Source: Spirochaetota bacterium
GTDB lineage: Bacteria > Spirochaetota > UBA4802 > UBA5550
NCBI GenBank assembly: GCA_050298055.1
Contig: JBNKTL010000030.1
Location: forward strand, 1-64,000
DNA length: 64,000 bases
Direction of reading: 5' to 3'
A program made the translations under genes and the position numbers. Of the stretch, positions 10,838-16,119 are shown piece by piece (positions within the stretch are counted from its first letter, which is position 1; each line of letters opens with the position of its first letter). The notes beneath the pieces are model-generated. The model was not told the origin of the DNA, searched no databases, and saw nothing but the letters and a program-made list of their open reading frames with translations.

Positions 10838-11002
10838 ATGAGAAAAGTCATTAAAATCAACGAATTTGCCGATGAACTGATACGAAGAATCGAAGACGCA
10901 AAGGACATCGAATGCTGCAAATTAGAGATAATGAACCTGGCAAATATCGCCAAGGAGAAGCTGGGGGACCACGATATCGAGGTCGAATGGAAAGAGGATT
11001 AG
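10838..11002 (+). CDS. Small 54-aa hypothetical protein (below the ORF-track cutoff)
   Basis: AAGGAG RBS then ATG; MRKVIKINEFADELIRRIEDAKDIECCKLEIMNLANIAKEKLGDHDIEVEWKED; fills the intergenic gap and converges on the TrxR gene. Confidence 0.75.
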   Translation: MRKVIKINEFADELIRRIEDAKDIECCKLEIMNLANIAKEKLGDHDIEVEWKED

Positions 11003-11008
11003 GTCCGG

Positions 11009-12304
11009 CTAACCCTCTGACTCTTCAATCTCCCTGGCGGCTGTTATTGCCGCTATGGTCCCATCCGCCACTGAAGTTGTAATCTGCCTGTAGGCCTTGG
11101 TCTTAACGTCCCCTGCGGCAAAGATATCATCGATATTTGTATGCATAAAGTCATCGGTATCCAGATAACCCCATTCGTCTACCATGAGTGAATCACCGAA
11201 GAGTTCAAGGTTGGGCTTCATCCCCGCAAAGATAAAGACCCCGTCACAGGAGAGGGTATGATATTTACCTGTTTTCAGGTCCTCAATTCTGATCTCCATT
11301 GTTCCGTCATCCAGCTTTTTAAACTCCCTGGGTTCATGCTCAAAAATAAAATTGATCTTCTCATTGGCAAATGCCCTCTCCTGGGCAACCCTGTTGGCCT
11401 GGAGTTTGTCAAACTGGTGTACAATGGTCACCTTTTCGGCAAATTTCGTGATAAAGAGCGATTCTTCGATGGCCGAGTTCCCCCCGCCGACAACCACCAC
11501 GTGCTTATCATCATAGTATTTGGCATCACATGTGGCGCAGTATGAAATTCCCTTCCCCTTGTACTCAACCTCGCCGGGAACACCCAGACTCCTGTAGGAT
11601 GAACCTGTTGCTATGATGATCTTTTTGGCAATGATGGTTTCAAAACCGTCAACAAGGATCTTTTTCTTTTCCAGATCAACATCCGTAATTTCAACGGCAG
11701 ATCTGAAAATAACTCCCGCGTTTTTTGCCTGTTCGGTCATATAGTGCATGAGCATGAAGCCCTCTATGGGCTTTTCAAAACCGGGAAAATTTGACACAAG
11801 ATGTGTGGTCGTTACCTGGCCTCCCGGAAGGGCAATATCCGCGACAATAGTCTTCATCCTGGCCTGTGACGCATAGATGCCCGCCGTAAGTCCGGAGGGA
11901 CCGCCGCCGATGATGAGTATATCACATTCCGTTTTGACTTTTTTTATGGCTGATTTTATCTCTGCTGCCCTCTCACCAGGTATCAGGGCATCGAGATTTT
12001 TGATAAGGTCAGACCTCTTTATTCCGCCGCTCAGAATATCCCCCGTCTGTTTACCGTCTTTATAGAACAGAACAGTAGGGGATGAATGGATGTCCATGGA
12101 CTCGGCAAGTTCCCTGTTCTCCTGCCTGAATATTTTTAAAAACTTTATATCGTCCCCGTAGAGTTCGCTCAGTGACTCATACTTCGGTGCAAGTGCTTCA
12201 CAGGGAGGACATTCCGTGGAATAGAAATCAACAACCACCCTGCCTCCCTGAAGCACCTCCTTTTTGTACAGGTCGGAACCGATTTCATTTATTTTACCTG
12301 CCAT
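11009..12304 (-). CDS. Thioredoxin-thioredoxin reductase fusion
   Basis: N-terminal Trx domain (VVDFYSTECPPC); TrxB-type GGGPSG, SYCATCD, GGGNSA and FAAGD motifs; RBS AAGGAG before ATG at 12304. Confidence 0.9.
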   Translation of the reverse strand: MAGKINEIGSDLYKKEVLQGGRVVVDFYSTECPPCEALAPKYESLSELYGDDIKFLKIFRQENRELAESMDIHSSPTVLFYKDGKQTGDILSGGIKRSDLIKNLDALIPGERAAEIKSAIKKVKTECDILIIGGGPSGLTAGIYASQARMKTIVADIALPGGQVTTTHLVSNFPGFEKPIEGFMLMHYMTEQAKNAGVIFRSAVEITDVDLEKKKILVDGFETIIAKKIIIATGSSYRSLGVPGEVEYKGKGISYCATCDAKYYDDKHVVVVGGGNSAIEESLFITKFAEKVTIVHQFDKLQANRVAQERAFANEKINFIFEHEPREFKKLDDGTMEIRIEDLKTGKYHTLSCDGVFIFAGMKPNLELFGDSLMVDEWGYLDTDDFMHTNIDDIFAAGDVKTKAYRQITTSVADGTIAAITAAREIEESEG

Positions 12305-13622
12305 TGTCTGTCTCCTTTTCAAAATAGAGTGATAATCCCATCTCCATAAGTTCTTTTACCGGCCGGCAGTCCGGGGCCGATATACTGCCGGTACTATTTT
12401 CTGCAACGGATGCACAGCCTCCTCCGCATAACAGCTGCAGTGAACACTCCCGGCATTCACTGATTGTTGTTACGTCTCTTTTTTGCCAGTTCCGGATAAT
12501 TTCAGTTTCTGTCTCAACAACGGGGAAAAACTTCCCTATTGATTCACCCGCCTTTCCCGCTGTGGCCGTACAGGAGTATATTTTTCCGGTGTGGTCAAAG
12601 GCCCATTCGGTTTTACATCCGGGACATGAATCAAAAAGCGGGTCCGGCATCTCGCCGTTTTCTTTGAGAAACCGGGAGATTGAAAATGCCGGCCTGTGAA
12701 ACCGGAGTATCCGGGGATATTCATCAATCAGCCGGTAAATATCTTCATAGAGCTCAACCCTGTTATAGAGCGATTCCCTGTTTTTGAAACAGTGATGAAG
12801 TTCATAGTTCCTGCCAAGCTGTGTCTTAAAGAGCGGGTCGTCACTCCATCCTTTCTCCATGGCAAAATCCGAAAGACGGGGAAGGTCATTGATATTTTCC
12901 CTGTCCAGGACGACCCTCAGGTTAACGGGGATCCTGTTTTCCAGGGCAAAATCAACCCCCTCAACGATTTTCCGGAAGGTGGGACCCCCTCCTGCGAGAC
13001 CTCTTCTTGAGTTATGGACCTCCTCGGTCCCGTCCAAAGTCACCTGGATCTCCCTGATATCACCCCCCTGGAAAAGGTCCATATAATCGGAAAGATGATA
13101 CCCGTTTGTCACAACTGCCACCTGGAGCCCGTCCCGGGCTGCTCCTTCAAGAAGCATTTTTATGCTCTCCCGTGCTCTTACCGTATTGAGAAGCGGCTCC
13201 CCCCCGAAGATTGTAATATATTTATTCCTGTGGCTGAAATTTTCAGCAATATAGTTGAAGAACGATTCAATAACTTCACCGTTTCCCGCGGGCCCCTCAT
13301 GCTGATATTCATCCTGGTAGCAGTAAGAACATTTGAAATTACAGCCGTATCCGGGAACATAGAATATCTGGATCTCAGAGCTGTCCCTGGTTTTGATAAA
13401 CTTTTCGTATTCGCTCCTGTACTTTTTCTCCTCATCGTCCCTGTTCGCCAGGTATCCCTTTTCCACATACTCCTCAATATCAGTATACCTCTTTTCCAGG
13501 ATCTCTTTCGCCTTGTCAGGATTGAGGATATCGGCATTCCCTGAGAGGGAGTTGAGGATAAAGTAATTTTCAGAATTCTTTATCCGGGAAAAAATATTGT
13601 ACTTTGAAAAATATGTTATCAT
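12294..13622 (-). CDS. Radical SAM/SPASM-domain peptide maturase
   Basis: CNFKCSYC (CX3CX2C), GGEPLL, VTNG, QVTLDG; SPASM cysteines CPGC...GKIYSC...CRECSLQLLCGGGC...C; about 80-aa N-terminal RRE-like extension. Confidence 0.92.
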   Translation of the reverse strand: MITYFSKYNIFSRIKNSENYFILNSLSGNADILNPDKAKEILEKRYTDIEEYVEKGYLANRDDEEKKYRSEYEKFIKTRDSSEIQIFYVPGYGCNFKCSYCYQDEYQHEGPAGNGEVIESFFNYIAENFSHRNKYITIFGGEPLLNTVRARESIKMLLEGAARDGLQVAVVTNGYHLSDYMDLFQGGDIREIQVTLDGTEEVHNSRRGLAGGGPTFRKIVEGVDFALENRIPVNLRVVLDRENINDLPRLSDFAMEKGWSDDPLFKTQLGRNYELHHCFKNRESLYNRVELYEDIYRLIDEYPRILRFHRPAFSISRFLKENGEMPDPLFDSCPGCKTEWAFDHTGKIYSCTATAGKAGESIGKFFPVVETETEIIRNWQKRDVTTISECRECSLQLLCGGGCASVAENSTGSISAPDCRPVKELMEMGLSLYFEKETDNGR

Positions 13623-13635
13623 AATTATTAACTTT

Positions 13636-13659
13636 CTGCTGCCGGTTACCCGGCAGCAG
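13636..13659 (-). promoter_or_regulatory. GC-rich hairpin between the precursor peptide and maturase genes (possible attenuator or stability element)
   Basis: Perfect 10-bp stem CTGCTGCCGG-TTAC-CCGGCAGCAG, 13 nt upstream of the rSAM ATG; no poly-U tail on the minus strand. Confidence 0.55.
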
Positions 13660-13762
13660 CCTGTCTCGAACTTCCACTGCGTGATTATTAACTAATGATT
13701 GGTTAACTGCTGGAATATACAGCTATTAAGAATTATATGTACAAAATCACGCGGGCTCAGCA

Positions 13763-13858
13763 CTAGTCGTGACACCCGGCAACAATAGGTGAAATTTTCG
13801 CACAGCACTGTGCCACGCAGCAGCATTCTGATTCCTTCTTTTTAATCAGTGAAATCAT
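13763..13858 (-). CDS. Cys-rich 31-aa putative RiPP precursor peptide
   Basis: AGGAG (13866-13870) 7 nt before ATG; MISLIKKKESECCCVAQCCAKISPIVAGCHD*; sits directly upstream of the rSAM/SPASM gene. Confidence 0.88.
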   Translation of the reverse strand: MISLIKKKESECCCVAQCCAKISPIVAGCHD

Positions 13859-13887
13859 CTTTTAACTCCTTTTCGATAATAGCTTTT

Positions 13888-14532
13888 TCAATAAGGCTTA
13901 TGACCTTTTATTGTAAAACTCACCAGTTCGGCCTCTCCCCTCCTGTAAGGAGAGCTCTCCCCGGAAATTGTTACTTGAATAAAACCTGCAGATTCGACCG
14001 TCTCAAGATATTCATCCCGGGGAACAGCCCCTGCCCAGCAGCCGGCAACCGCTTCGGGATCACCGCTGTATTTTTCCGGGATCTTCTCCGTTGAGTAGAC
14101 ATCATTAACGATAAACTCTCCCCCCTTTTTCAGGACCCTGAAAACCTCTTCCCAGACACGCTCCTTGTTCTGTGCATGGTTAATGGTGCAGTTGGATATT
14201 ATGAGGTCAAGAGTATCATCCTCCAGGCAGATCTTTTCCAGGCTGCTCTGCACAATCTCCGCATTACTGAGACCGCTCTCATCAATTGCCTCCCTGGCCT
14301 TCCTGACCATCCCCTCGGATACGTCGATACCATAAACATATCCGCTTTTTCCCGCACGCCGGGCAAGCTTTATAACATCACCACCCCTGCCGCAGCCAAG
14401 ATCAGCACAGAAAAATCCCTCTCTGACCTCCTGGTAATCCCTTGAAGCTCCGCAGGAGAGGGAAGAGCTTTCCGCAGCCAGGCCGCTGTACCTCTTATTA
14501 ATACTCTTAATTCTTGATAAGTTCTCAGTCAT
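13888..14532 (-). CDS. ArsM (arsenite methyltransferase)-like class I SAM methyltransferase
   Basis: DLGCGRGGD motif I; SLSCG, ISNCTIN and AGCWAGA match the ArsM Cys motifs; start overlaps the MarR stop. Confidence 0.75.
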   Translation of the reverse strand: MTENLSRIKSINKRYSGLAAESSSLSCGASRDYQEVREGFFCADLGCGRGGDVIKLARRAGKSGYVYGIDVSEGMVRKAREAIDESGLSNAEIVQSSLEKICLEDDTLDLIISNCTINHAQNKERVWEEVFRVLKKGGEFIVNDVYSTEKIPEKYSGDPEAVAGCWAGAVPRDEYLETVESAGFIQVTISGESSPYRRGEAELVSFTIKGHKPY

Positions 14533-14830
14533 TCTTTTCTTCAAGTACCTTTAGAAGAACACCCAGCGCCCTGTCAACTGTCTTTCGTTCATTTTCTGTA
14601 AGCCTGTTTTTAAGCCTCGATTCACACAATTTCTTAGCGGCTGTAATCTCTTTCCTGCAGAGATTTCCCGATTGTGAGAGTGATATCTCAATGGCCCTTC
14701 TGTCCCCCGGCGATATCTTCCGTTTAAGATACCCTTTATTTATCAGATTGTCAACTATTCTGCTTACCCGTGACGGAGAAAGATCCATCCTTCGGGAAAC
14801 TTCATGCGATGCCACTCTCTCATTTATCAA
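14525..14830 (-). CDS. MarR-family winged-helix regulator, apparently lacking the N-terminal helices
   Basis: EVSRRMDLSPSRVSRIVDNLINKGYLKRKISPGDRRAIEISLS; the extension to 14938 overlaps the divergent thiolase start, so TTG at 14830 is the more plausible start. Confidence 0.65.
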   Translation of the reverse strand: MINERVASHEVSRRMDLSPSRVSRIVDNLINKGYLKRKISPGDRRAIEISLSQSGNLCRKEITAAKKLCESRLKNRLTENERKTVDRALGVLLKVLEEKND

Positions 14831-14931
14831 CTTTTTTTTAAAATAACTTGTTAAATATTTGACGCCCGGTATTTTGTATTTTGCGAGATAAAAATTACAA
14901 ACCGATATTGTGGAAACAAAAGGAGAATATA

Positions 14932-16119
<1,188 letters not shown>

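Follow-up and report, generated by a model that had tools for sequence, protein, structure and literature searches.

What would a bacterium gain from encoding a transcriptional regulator, an arsenic methyltransferase-like enzyme, a very small cysteine-bearing peptide, a radical SAM/SPASM enzyme and a thioredoxin–thioredoxin reductase (Trx–TrxR) fusion in a single run of genes? In the window, by which we mean the whole 64,000-nucleotide stretch of DNA analysed here, all five reading frames lie co-oriented on the minus strand. The tight packing described in the original prediction is real: the MarR and methyltransferase genes overlap by 8 nt, 29 nt separate the methyltransferase gene from the peptide gene, and the radical SAM and Trx–TrxR genes overlap by 11 nt. 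To these we add a 140-nt spacer between the peptide and radical SAM genes, absent from that prediction, which contains a 10-bp hairpin. Pfam and NCBIfam searches uphold the families first assigned (MarR_2; ArsM-like methyltransferase; Radical_SAM with Fer4_12; Thioredoxin with Pyr_redox_2).

We found the same gene order in 9 reference-genome loci from three phyla, about 30 loci from the phylum to which the window belongs and 80 loci from metagenomes, a recurrence that places the arrangement far beyond chance. Among 301 sampled genomes of the window's phylum, the radical SAM gene is present in 33, a patchy, accessory distribution, and the peptide DNA motif in 27, all of them within those 33; the reversed pattern, used as a control, gave 0 matches in the 301 genomes. 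Of the six radical SAM-positive genomes without the standard motif, five encode a peptide with the variant AQCC[ST]K, and the locus of the sixth is truncated by a contig end. In the metagenome sample, counting for each gene only loci with enough flank, the radical SAM gene is accompanied by the adjoining peptide in 72/75 loci, by the methyltransferase in 55/60 and by the Trx–TrxR fusion in 50/55, the co-occurrence that had been put forward for checking. That these genes are chance neighbours without a common function, or that the small reading frame is not a gene, has a likelihood close to nil: beyond the peptide's lack of any match in NCBIfam or Pfam we found nothing in its favour, and it is already contradicted by an order shared by more than 100 loci in several phyla and by a peptide that has a good ribosome-binding site and whose motif occurs only beside the radical SAM gene. 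The methyltransferase, peptide, radical SAM/SPASM and Trx–TrxR genes are a conserved unit (here, the cassette), organized, as originally proposed, around a cysteine peptide and a radical SAM/SPASM enzyme bearing an RRE. We found no account of it in the literature or databases searched, and the gene set, recurrent in several bacterial phyla, is apparently undescribed.

The 31-residue precursor peptide (13763..13858, minus strand) was delineated by its ribosome-binding site, ortholog alignment and DNA motif. An AAGGAG sequence at 13866-13871 lies 7 nt before the ATG; the leader reads M-I/K-S-L-I-K-K-K, and the core, AQCCAKISPIVAGCHD, runs to the stop codon. In an alignment of 38 orthologs, M1, A16, Q17, C18, C19, K21, G28, C29, H30 and D31 are invariant and S23 is conserved in at least 90%; the C-terminal motif, AQCC[AST]K.[ST]....GCHD, lies in a core that is nearly invariant across phyla. 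The description of the peptide as cysteine-rich holds for the window's copy, with six cysteines, but conservation extends to only three, the CC pair and the GCHD cysteine; the extra CCC is lineage-specific. Spacer folding places a perfect 10-bp hairpin with a GUAA loop at 13636..13659 (minus strand), 14 nt before the radical SAM start and with no U tract; the 161-nt spacer folds at -46.8 kcal/mol (z = -3.7). An uninterrupted stem of at least 9 bp follows the peptide gene in 22/37 loci, versus 1/37 coding-region controls, and the stem sequences vary from locus to locus. Such a stem-loop 3' of the peptide gene may ensure that more peptide than enzyme is made.

The neighboring gene (12294..13622, minus strand) encodes a peptide maturase of the radical SAM/SPASM type, bearing an RRE at its N terminus, as judged by motifs, an AF2 model, fold and NCBIfam matches. 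Its CX3CX2C motif (C94/C98/C101) is conserved in 37/37 sequences, as are seven further cysteines (C333, C351, C390, C393, C399, C403 and C419). In the model (pLDDT 90.5), residues 9-81 form an RRE-like beta3-alpha3 domain. CteB, anSME and SuiB have the most similar folds, and CteB is the best PDB match both by fold (5wgg, E 1.9e-18, TM 0.67) and by sequence (E 4.1e-13). The NCBIfam run suggested at the outset left the enzyme below every cut-off among the matches listed and without an assigned family, the best score being CefB at 139 bits versus 600; the nearest models (CefB, TIGR04463, PapB and SCIFF) all derive from maturases of cysteine-rich peptides. On sequence and modeled structure, this enzyme probably cross-links the three-cysteine peptide.

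Is the product then a conventional RiPP, a ranthipeptide or sactipeptide acting outside the cell as an antimicrobial or signal, with the methyltransferase as a tailoring enzyme and Trx–TrxR keeping the precursor reduced? RiPP maturases are indeed the closest enzymes, the precursor has a leader/core layout, and a stem-loop after the precursor gene is found in many RiPP operons. Nonetheless, no recurrent exporter, leader protease or immunity gene is found among the neighbor clusters of 89 loci, which counts against a bacteriocin, and the core lacks the diversification of weapons and signals; moreover, neither a reductase of its own nor an ArsM-type methyltransferase with intact metalloid-site cysteines would be expected of a tailoring pathway. 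We consider an external RiPP quite unlikely. The preference for an intracellular role in the original prediction gains from the same 89 loci, but an exclusively intracellular role may not hold for every lineage, since loci of the Bacteroidota type also encode an exported thioredoxin and small membrane proteins that bear cysteines. In these loci, and in one genome of the phylum sample (G057), the exported thioredoxin is lipoprotein-like and is accompanied by membrane proteins of the DUF6132 or CcdA-like kind. Such envelope-facing proteins would suit an external product, and they point to an envelope step outside the model proposed below.

The methyltransferase (13888..14532, minus strand) is a short, 214-residue member of the ArsM family, assigned by fold and by its match to NF008823 (170.3 bits, under the 263 cut-off); it starts at an ATG, with a TTG further upstream at 14544. 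Unlike canonical ArsM, it lacks both the N-terminal cysteine-bearing extension and the C-terminal domain. The cysteines that align to C72, C174 and C224 of CmArsM, the arsenic site, are nevertheless invariant in 35/35 orthologs, and the top 12 Foldseek PDB matches of the AF2 model (pLDDT 91.8) are all ArsM/AS3MT (TMq 0.74-0.81). A CC-x-x-C motif occurs in 27-30 of the 35 orthologs; the window's own enzyme lacks the CC and reads SSLSCG. Full-length matches of the short type (frames of about 215-240 residues) were found in 32 of the 33 radical SAM-positive genomes, 29 of them with E<=1e-46 and 40-54% identity; the remaining three (G104, G119 and G044; 1e-30 to 1e-37, 33-34% identity) overlap canonical ArsM-like genes in score and were called short-type by synteny and coverage. 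Canonical ArsM-like genes elsewhere encode 256-370 residues. Outside the radical SAM-positive genomes of the phylum sample, the short type occurs only in G040, with a decayed cassette; G108 holds a second copy. The short type is thus confined almost only to cassette-bearing genomes, and this tie to the radical SAM enzyme and peptide favors peptide tailoring or, failing that, some function bound to the peptide.

The last gene (11009..12304, minus strand; ATG at 12304, with a TTG at 12322) fuses a thioredoxin (CPPC) to a thioredoxin-reductase-type flavoprotein (CATC), as assigned by TIGR01292 (318.8 bits, cut-off 343.45) and TIGR03140, with residues 33-428 collinear with positions 124-508 of the latter, AhpF profile. 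Both cysteine pairs are invariant in 33/33 sequences, and HQFD occupies the position of the S. aureus TrxR HRRD in 30/33. A separate housekeeping TrxR is encoded on contig C34 of the window's genome, and the fusion appears, from its sequence, to be a dedicated reductase of the cassette.

At the other end of the operon stands a MarR-family winged-helix regulator (14525..14938, minus strand; Pfam MarR_2, 40.9 bits). Its longest reading frame begins at TTG 14938, the TTG at 14830 chosen originally being an in-frame alternative start, and its N-terminal ~40 residues align poorly with orthologs. Orthologous MarR genes lie upstream of the methyltransferase gene in 13 other phylum-sample loci and 4/80 metagenome loci, and a cysteine in the C-terminal helix (QCE/LCE) is conserved in 14/14. 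Some lineages carry ArsR-type regulators with cysteine-rich tails ending in CxxxCxC. The recurrent neighbors of the cassette are of thiol, redox or unknown function (DUF6132, DUF302, YgaP-like TM, NifX-like, DUF134, OsmC and Crp), with no ars genes among them.

Could the peptide be a redox cofactor, a surrogate for a low-molecular-weight thiol with no metalloid involved? Its vicinal Cys–Cys pair, cycling between disulfide and dithiol, would buffer redox state or carry electrons and be regenerated by Trx–TrxR, and the methyltransferase would S-methylate the peptide or a by-product, as tailoring or as an off-switch. The extreme conservation of the core across phyla recalls cofactor precursors, and the dedicated reductase, the conserved MarR cysteine, the cassette-confined methyltransferase and neighbors such as OsmC, MsrAB, Crp/Fnr, extra thioredoxins and the CcdA-like or DUF6132 proteins with exported thioredoxin would all fit. 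Left unexplained are the three invariant arsenic-site cysteines around the methyl-transfer site; the accessory distribution is not that of a core function, and ArsR-type regulators and, in a few loci, ars genes do occur. We regard such a cofactor as possible, if rather unlikely.

The arsenic link of the cassette is itself weak. The surroundings of most loci contain no ars genes, and acr3 lies near the cassette in 3/123, two of which may come from related lineages. In G057, arsM-acr3-arsC abut the cassette, the canonical ArsM being a separate gene; at L120 and L125, acr3 is in the flanking sequence. Across the phylum sample, 27/33 cassette genomes have acr3, versus 110/268 others, but no signal is left after kinship is considered, as within the window's family the figures are 7/8 with the cassette and 10/13 without; in the window's own genome, acr3 lies on a different contig. 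A further proposal is that the radical SAM enzyme generates a carbon radical on the peptide that Cys-bound As(III) (or Se) captures, yielding a C–As bond, after which the ArsM-type methyltransferase methylates the arsenic; this would parallel the ArsL/ArsM (arsinothricin) and ArsS/ArsM (arsenosugar) pairs, but on a peptide. Pairing of a radical SAM enzyme with ArsM is a hallmark of known organoarsenical pathways, NCBIfam holding ArsM models for both; the invariant CC...C triad offers a possible binding site for As(III), and the methyltransferase retains its own arsenic-site cysteines. However, the radical SAM enzyme is a SPASM/RRE peptide maturase akin to enzymes that form thioethers, the matches listed (25 of 73 matched families) include neither an ArsL nor an ArsS model, ars genes are rarely nearby, and such a product has no known precedent. 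We judge it very improbable.

For the chemistry, the substrate of the methyltransferase and the inducer, we propose the following model, tentatively and at somewhat less than an even chance: a cross-linked thiol peptide and an ArsM-type methyltransferase act on a soft metalloid or thiol and are recycled by their own reductase. The cassette would be a self-contained, regulated module centered on the peptide, switched on through cysteine-bearing MarR- or ArsR-type repressors, a role that a Zn-ribbon protein may take in many Bacteroidota-type loci. On grounds of protein family and fold, we expect the ~31-residue precursor to dock on the RRE through its basic leader, and the enzyme to introduce one or more intramolecular cross-links into the invariant core AQCC.K.S....GCHD. 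These would most likely be thioethers from Cys sulfur to carbon, as made by CteB and PapB, joining C29 to D31, for instance, or C18/C19 to S/T23. The constrained product likely remains cell-associated, with at least its vicinal CC thiols retained, and may work with the short methyltransferase in one of two ways. It may deliver a soft metalloid, whether an As(III), Sb(III), Se or Te species, for methylation at the three-cysteine site, an option that gains from the invariant cysteines, the ArsM/AS3MT folds, the ArsR-type regulators and the nearby acr3 genes, or it may itself be the thiol substrate. Because ArsM/AS3MT enzymes are known to need a disulfide reductant, we infer that the AhpF-like Trx–TrxR re-reduces disulfides formed in the methyltransferase and/or the peptide, probably with NADH rather than NADPH as electron donor. 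If all three cysteines became thioethers, no thiol would be left for metalloid carriage, which counts against the model, as do the methyltransferase score below the ArsM cut-off and the missing CC in the window's copy.

How does the cassette relate to known systems? SCIFF (the ScfA peptide and its thioether-forming maturase ScfB/CteB; PDB 5WGG) likewise places a short, widely conserved cysteine-rich peptide beside an RRE-bearing radical SAM/SPASM enzyme, with no exporter. However, the maturase described here reaches 83.8 bits on TIGR03974, whose cut-off is 425, its peptide has three conserved cysteines, another motif and no NCBIfam match, and we know of no SCIFF locus with an ArsM-like methyltransferase or Trx–TrxR. 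The best-matching models, the ranthipeptide maturases CefB (Cys-every-fifth; 139 bits), TIGR04463 (121) and PapB (freyrasin; 105), all act on cysteine-rich cores, and PapB joins Cys to Asp, our peptide carrying an invariant C-x-D; scores are far under the cut-offs (600, 525 and 340), our peptide has another core motif, and its partner genes set the cassette apart.

ArsM/AS3MT enzymes, which depend on Trx/TrxR in vitro, share with the cassette the methyltransferase fold, the three arsenic-site cysteines and a disulfide reductase encoded alongside, but here the linkage is to a peptide and radical SAM gene, not to arsR/acr3/arsC. ArsL/ArsM and ArsS/ArsM also combine a radical SAM enzyme with an ArsM-type methyltransferase; on those ArsM models, however, our methyltransferase scores 91.7 versus 500 and 66.5 versus 400, and to our knowledge the ArsL and ArsS enzymes modify small molecules, with neither a precursor peptide nor the RRE/SPASM layout of a peptide maturase. 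AhpF, the alkyl hydroperoxide reductase subunit F, similarly carries a Trx-fold CxxC domain N-terminal to a TrxR-type flavoprotein and is dedicated to one partner, but the fusion here has a single Trx fold with CPPC and scores 225.5 versus 502.9 on TIGR03140, and no AhpC is present in the cassette.

CrpC of Methanococcus voltae, an RRE-bearing radical SAM/SPASM enzyme, introduces ranthionine cross-links into the genome-adjacent cysteine-rich protein CrpA, whose native function is unknown (PMC13692751); the likeness is one of description, CrpA is an archaeal protein and not a 31-residue peptide, and the abstract mentions no methyltransferase or reductase partner. The PQQ (PqqA/PqqE/PqqD) and mycofactocin (MftA/MftC/MftB) systems modify other residues, their loci lack cysteine chemistry, a methyltransferase and TrxR, and our enzyme scores 51.7 versus 265 on the mycofactocin maturase model. 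As proposed for the cassette, both nevertheless start from a tiny, highly conserved precursor whose C-terminal end is modified by a radical SAM/SPASM enzyme with an RRE, and both make an intracellular product with no exporter.

Our analyses of the cassette directly establish a four-gene unit, together with its catalytic residues and folds: a short ArsM-like SAM methyltransferase (MT), a small peptide, a radical SAM/SPASM enzyme (rSAM), and a fused thioredoxin/thioredoxin reductase (Trx-TrxR). It is very probable that the peptide is a substrate of the rSAM enzyme and that all four genes act in concert. We tentatively propose the following model, in which a cross-linked thiol peptide operates with an ArsM-type methyltransferase and a recycling Trx-TrxR, a plausible reading that we place somewhat short of even probability. 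The rSAM enzyme would bind the leader of the peptide via its RiPP recognition element (RRE) and cross-link the core, most likely through Cys-to-carbon thioethers. The resulting thiol peptide, constrained by its cross-links, would be produced in excess and stay with the cell. MT would act together with this peptide; its substrate would be a soft metalloid exchanged between the cysteines of peptide and enzyme, or else a peptide thiol, while the AhpF-like Trx-TrxR would recycle disulfides and Cys-bearing repressors would sense the trigger.

In the window, the cassette lies on the minus strand, with a MarR-like ORF (14525-14938) preceding the genes for MT (13888-14532), the peptide (a 31-codon ORF, 13763-13858), rSAM (12294-13622), and Trx-TrxR (11009-12304). 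Reading the DNA bore out the tight five-gene packing of the original prediction: the end of the MarR-like ORF overlaps the start of MT by 8 nt, 29 nt separate MT from the peptide gene, and rSAM and Trx-TrxR overlap by 11 nt. Absent from that earlier account is a spacer of 140 nt between the peptide and rSAM genes, in which a hairpin with a perfect stem of 10 bp stands 14 nt upstream of the rSAM start. The ATG of the peptide gene is preceded by AAGGAG at 7 nt. The flanking genes, encoding a thiolase, an acyl-CoA dehydrogenase, an XRE-cupin regulator, and a Nudix protein, are not conserved at other loci. Just past the 3' end of Trx-TrxR, on the opposite (plus) strand, is a short ORF (10838-11002, 54 aa) whose product contains ECCK; it was not among the recurrent neighbors at other loci.

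The order MT, peptide, rSAM, Trx-TrxR is kept, up to contig ends, at nine reference-genome loci from Bacteroidota, Acidobacteriota, and Oceanispirochaeta. In an even set of 301 genomes from the window's phylum, rSAM is present in 33, and a degenerate DNA pattern for the peptide (CCAK-x6-GCHD) occurs in 27, all of them among these 33; a reversed-pattern control gave no match. Five of the six remaining rSAM-positive genomes carry a variant AQCC[ST]K peptide beside rSAM, and the sixth is cut by a contig end. Metagenome loci, taken as the best 80 of 412 rSAM relatives, agree with the predicted conservation of a peptide adjacent to rSAM homologs: the peptide lies at most 600 nt upstream of rSAM in 72 of the 75 such loci whose flank measures 200 nt or more, MT is present in 55/60 with at least 1 kb upstream, and Trx-TrxR in 50/55 with at least 1.4 kb downstream. 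Genes at these loci were called as six-frame ORFs, and the counts describe samples rather than statistical tests, because kin are not independent. That the arrangement arose by chance has a negligible likelihood.

Eight of 122 loci lack any peptide match. Upstream DNA is missing at four (L003, L102, L108, and L137), L040 is truncated, and L074 sits on a contig of 2.4 kb; the peptide of L035 lies 2.3 kb off, beyond the stretch taken for that locus, and was found in L045. At L119, rSAM is split into two frames, and MT and the peptide are missing. A further locus, L143 (G040:C132), has MT followed directly by a C-terminal remnant of Trx-TrxR, its last ~80 codons. L119 and L143 are decayed cassettes. 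Genome G129 carries two near-identical full cassettes on contigs C91 and C92, so that the cassette is duplicated there or the assembly has split a single copy.

The rSAM enzyme has the cluster motif CX3CX2C (C94/C98/C101), invariant in 37/37 orthologs, and Pfam Radical_SAM scores 71.8 bits. Seven cysteines in the SPASM pattern (C333, C351, C390-x2-C393-x5-C399-x3-C403, and C419) are likewise present in all 37 orthologs, in a region that aligns to the SPASM regions of CteB and anSME; at E<=0.01, however, the region was not matched by the SPASM model of Pfam. An AF2 model of the enzyme (pLDDT 90.5) has an N-terminal domain of three strands and three helices (E9-13, E20-24, E29-33, H35-42, H49-55, and H61-81; pLDDT ~95), the usual form of the RiPP recognition element, and this domain is a predicted RRE, with leader binding as its predicted role. 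The nearest solved structure is the thioether synthase CteB (E 1.9e-18, TM 0.67), which is also the top match by sequence, followed by anSME, SuiB, TigE, and ChlB. Run against NCBIfam, as the original prediction had advised, rSAM reached the cut-off of no named family. The top-scoring families each consist of maturases acting on Cys-rich peptides, and every score is far under its cut-off: CefB (NF038107) at 139.2 bits against 600, TIGR04463 at 120.8 against 525, PapB (NF047865) at 104.9 against 340, and the SCIFF maturase TIGR03974 at 83.8 against 425. We rejected a SCIFF assignment on this last score and on the adjoining peptide, for which neither NCBIfam nor Pfam gave a family match at E<=0.01. 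On these matches, rSAM is predicted to work like a ranthipeptide or sactipeptide synthase, yet outside all named families. Its relatives number thousands, and the best 120 listed all score at least 600 bits at 55-81% identity. A member of the family is found in cultured Spirochaeta isovalerica, in which the rSAM gene alone was considered and is labeled by NCBI only as "radical SAM/SPASM domain-containing protein"; an ESM Atlas search returned generic radical-SAM clusters only.

What would such an enzyme act on? Among 38 peptide orthologs, aligned after exclusion of two exact duplicates, M1, A16, Q17, C18, C19, K21, G28, C29, H30, and D31 are invariant, S23 is kept in at least 90%, and a stop codon follows GCHD directly in every case. 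A conserved N-terminus, either MKSLIKKK or the MKS[VI]T.VNI of a second subfamily, is followed by an unconstrained middle part, which is the layout of a leader plus a core. Before AQCC, additional CC or CxC pairs are limited to particular lineages, the CCC of the window peptide being among them. Selenocysteine variants were not found, with TGA at a Cys position in 0 of 116 motif matches. At most loci, a stable stem-loop follows the peptide gene, although its sequence is unrelated between loci: an uninterrupted stem of at least 9 bp occurs in 22/37 spacers versus 1/37 coding controls, a T-rich tail follows the stem in 5 of these 22, and several further spacers form interrupted yet strong stems (RNAfold). 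In RiPP operons, such stem-loops keep the precursor transcript in excess.

With NF008823, the ArsM model, the window MT reaches 170.3 bits (cut-off 263) in an alignment that spans positions 56-233 of the 272 in the profile, and an ortholog in genome G057 scores 170.4 bits. Its structural model (pLDDT 91.8) matches ArsM and human AS3MT in the top 12 PDB hits across the full length of MT, which is without the N-terminal extension and the C-terminal domain of ArsM. Cysteines of the window MT align with C72, C174, and C224 of the Cyanidioschyzon ArsM (CmArsM) chain, and these equivalents are invariant in 35/35 MT orthologs; the titles of PDB entries for the C72A and C224A mutants identify those two residues as belonging to the arsenic site. 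An equivalent of CmArsM C44, the fourth conserved cysteine of ArsM, which lies in the N-terminal extension, is absent from MT, this extension being missing. A CC pair three residues before the C72 equivalent (CCLSCG) is found in 27-30 of the 35 orthologs, and the window MT reads SSLSCG at this place. We considered that extra peptide cysteines might compensate for the loss of this pair: an extra-Cys peptide occurs in 17/68 loci with a CC-type MT versus 5/8 with an MT missing one or both cysteines (76 of the 122 loci read), a difference too weak for use because a number of loci of subfamily B escaped the pattern and because kinship makes the rows non-independent.

In the 301 genomes already searched with rSAM, MT matches are of two kinds. 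Full-length matches, in frames of ~215-240 aa, occur in 32 of the 33 rSAM-positive genomes, in G040, which carries a decayed cassette, and as a second copy in G108. Among the 32 genomes, 29 score E<=1e-46 at 40-54% identity; the other three (G104, G119, and G044) reach only 1e-30 to 1e-37 at 33-34% identity, inside the score range of the second kind, and it was their synteny and full-length coverage that placed them with the cassette type. The second kind comprises partial matches at 29-42% identity, in frames mostly of 245-370 aa (two longer), to canonical ArsM-like genes of other genomes. Because the full-length matches are confined in this way, the short MT appears, within the 301-genome sample, to be specific to the cassette. 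Its methylation, whatever the substrate, would thus happen alongside the peptide system. No canonical ArsM above the cut-off was found in the window's genome. Five of the canonical ArsM-like, partial-match genes contain an in-frame TGA, a single one in each of G015, G042, G065, G085, and G215, which are complete genomes belonging to the same genus. These genes agree with the arsenite methyltransferase selenoproteins listed in PMC13188914.

Does the gene neighborhood link the cassette to arsenic? In G057, a canonical arsM, acr3 (437 bits, above the cut-off), and a thioredoxin-type arsC run convergent into the cassette. That cassette (L045, G057:C75:4000-12500) is rearranged, with the peptide gene divergent and 1.5 kb from MT, insertions encoding a CcdA/DsbD-like membrane protein, a secreted Trx-like protein, and an ArsR-family regulator, and only a Trx domain left after rSAM. 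At two metagenome loci, L120 (with an arsC-like match in addition) and L125, acr3 also lies within ~7 kb. Its proximity in 3 of 123 loci (0.92 Mb in all) exceeds chance for a single-copy gene, with small numbers and two cases that are perhaps kin. Ars genes beside the cassette are rare but real. Across the phylum sample, acr3 is present in 27/33 cassette genomes versus 110/268 others; within the window's family the figures are 7/8 with the cassette and 10/13 without, so that this phylogenetic profile is uninformative once kinship is considered. We regard arsenic as a lead rather than a finding, because acr3 neighbors are few, the profile is empty under kinship, and the acr3 of the window's genome lies on another contig. 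We also considered two bolder readings. In one, which we judge unlikely, the ribosomal peptide would be a dedicated metalloid carrier: its cysteines would hold an As, Sb, or Se atom that rSAM would shape or even join to carbon, MT would methylate this atom on the peptide, and Trx-TrxR would close the redox cycle. The other, a C-As "arsenopeptide", we hold to be very unlikely; the arsenic-site cysteines of MT speak for it and the sparse ars neighborhood against it.

The Trx-TrxR fusion scores 318.8 bits against TIGR01292, just under the cut-off of 343.45, and its CPPC (Trx domain) and CATC (reductase) motifs are invariant in 33/33 orthologs. At the site of HRRD in Staphylococcus aureus TrxR, 30 of the 33 read HQFD, with HRRK and YRGD as two exceptions. 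The arginines of HRRD bind the phosphate of NADPH. Since HQFD replaces HRRD and CPPC replaces CGPC, the motifs suggest that the electron donor is NADH or another donor rather than NADPH, and that the redox potential is unusual. The fusion is collinear with AhpF (TIGR03140), but AhpF identity was rejected at 225.5 bits versus the 502.9 needed, with no AhpC partner among the cassette genes or recurrent neighbors. The window's genome has a separate housekeeping TrxR, over its family cut-off. A private reductase is in keeping with a further alternative, a metalloid-free redox cofactor, against which speak the invariant arsenic-site cysteines of the accompanying MT; we consider this alternative possible though rather unlikely.

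Turning to regulation, the MarR-like protein scores 40.9 bits against Pfam MarR_2 (cut-off 27) and has the winged helix-turn-helix fold. A cysteine in the C-terminal helix is common to 14/14 MarR orthologs, whereas the N-terminal helix of the window protein, or its first ~40 residues, aligns poorly with the 13 others. The start of the ORF overlaps a divergent thiolase gene (14881-16119, plus strand), and the true start may be a TTG at 14830, giving a truncated, ~101-aa winged-helix protein. ArsR-type regulators of two Bacteroidota loci end in CxxxCxC.

Clustering of 875 neighboring ORFs from 89 loci yielded no recurrent transporter, protease, or immunity gene, extending to other loci what had been observed for the cassette in the window. 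The recurrent families are DUF6132, whose small, Cys-motif membrane proteins are usually encoded directly upstream of MT (25 loci), a divergent IS1595-type zinc-ribbon protein (21), DUF302 (13), a YgaP-like transmembrane protein (12), NifX-like proteins (10, plus 4 in a second cluster), Pyr_redox_2 (9), DUF134 (9), Crp/Fnr (8), OsmC (4), MarR (4), and ArsR (3). In 25 loci, a gene for a stand-alone thioredoxin (~153 aa) separates MT from the peptide gene. Judged by eye, most of these proteins have an N-terminal signal peptide whose last residue is Cys and are thus candidate exported lipoproteins; simple sequence patterns picked out 6 and 14 of them. In Bacteroidota-type loci, the DUF6132 proteins (~70-90 aa; for example, L004:3414-3626, L002:3867-4103, and L092:5348-5614) have GCxxGxC in the membrane segment and a Cys-rich tail, and are often accompanied by the lipoprotein-like thioredoxin. 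The two might together carry electrons to the envelope, a role that CcdA may have in G057. Such envelope-facing accessories, present at some loci, would suit a classical exported RiPP; given a neighborhood with no recurrent transporter, protease, or immunity gene, we find that alternative distinctly unlikely.

If the peptide of our proposed model is a thiol partner in metalloid methylation, it would bear on arsenic methylation by anaerobes without glutathione; as a redox cofactor, it would instead add a new member to the cofactors derived from peptides. Should the metalloid-carrier reading prove true, the cassette would encode the first metalloid-handling RiPP, and anaerobes without glutathione would gain a built-in partner for arsenic (or selenium) methylation. 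In each case, a widespread enzyme family is at hand whose chemistry is directly testable.

Full-text searching found no literature on the gene set, and the supplementary tables of the rSAM compendium PMC10288494 may list the family. The systems described in the consulted text of PMC13188914, PMC10352776, PMC10288494, 10.1101/2022.07.06.499078, and PMC13692751 are different ones. The peptide has no match among Pfam or NCBIfam models, and none of the enzymes attains the cut-off of a curated family. The pairing of an rSAM/SPASM enzyme with a peptide is itself of a known kind; neither the fixed partnership with an ArsM-type MT and a private Trx-TrxR nor this peptide core, which is nearly constant in sequence across Spirochaetota, Bacteroidota, Acidobacteriota, and other phyla, is described in NCBIfam (June 2026), Pfam, or the papers found by full-text searching. 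In the Haft preprint (10.1101/2022.07.06.499078), vicinal Cys-Sec or Cys-Cys motifs mark the organometallic systems SAO, HgcA, and MerT, and we would view this marker, by analogy rather than as evidence, as a parallel to the cassette peptide.
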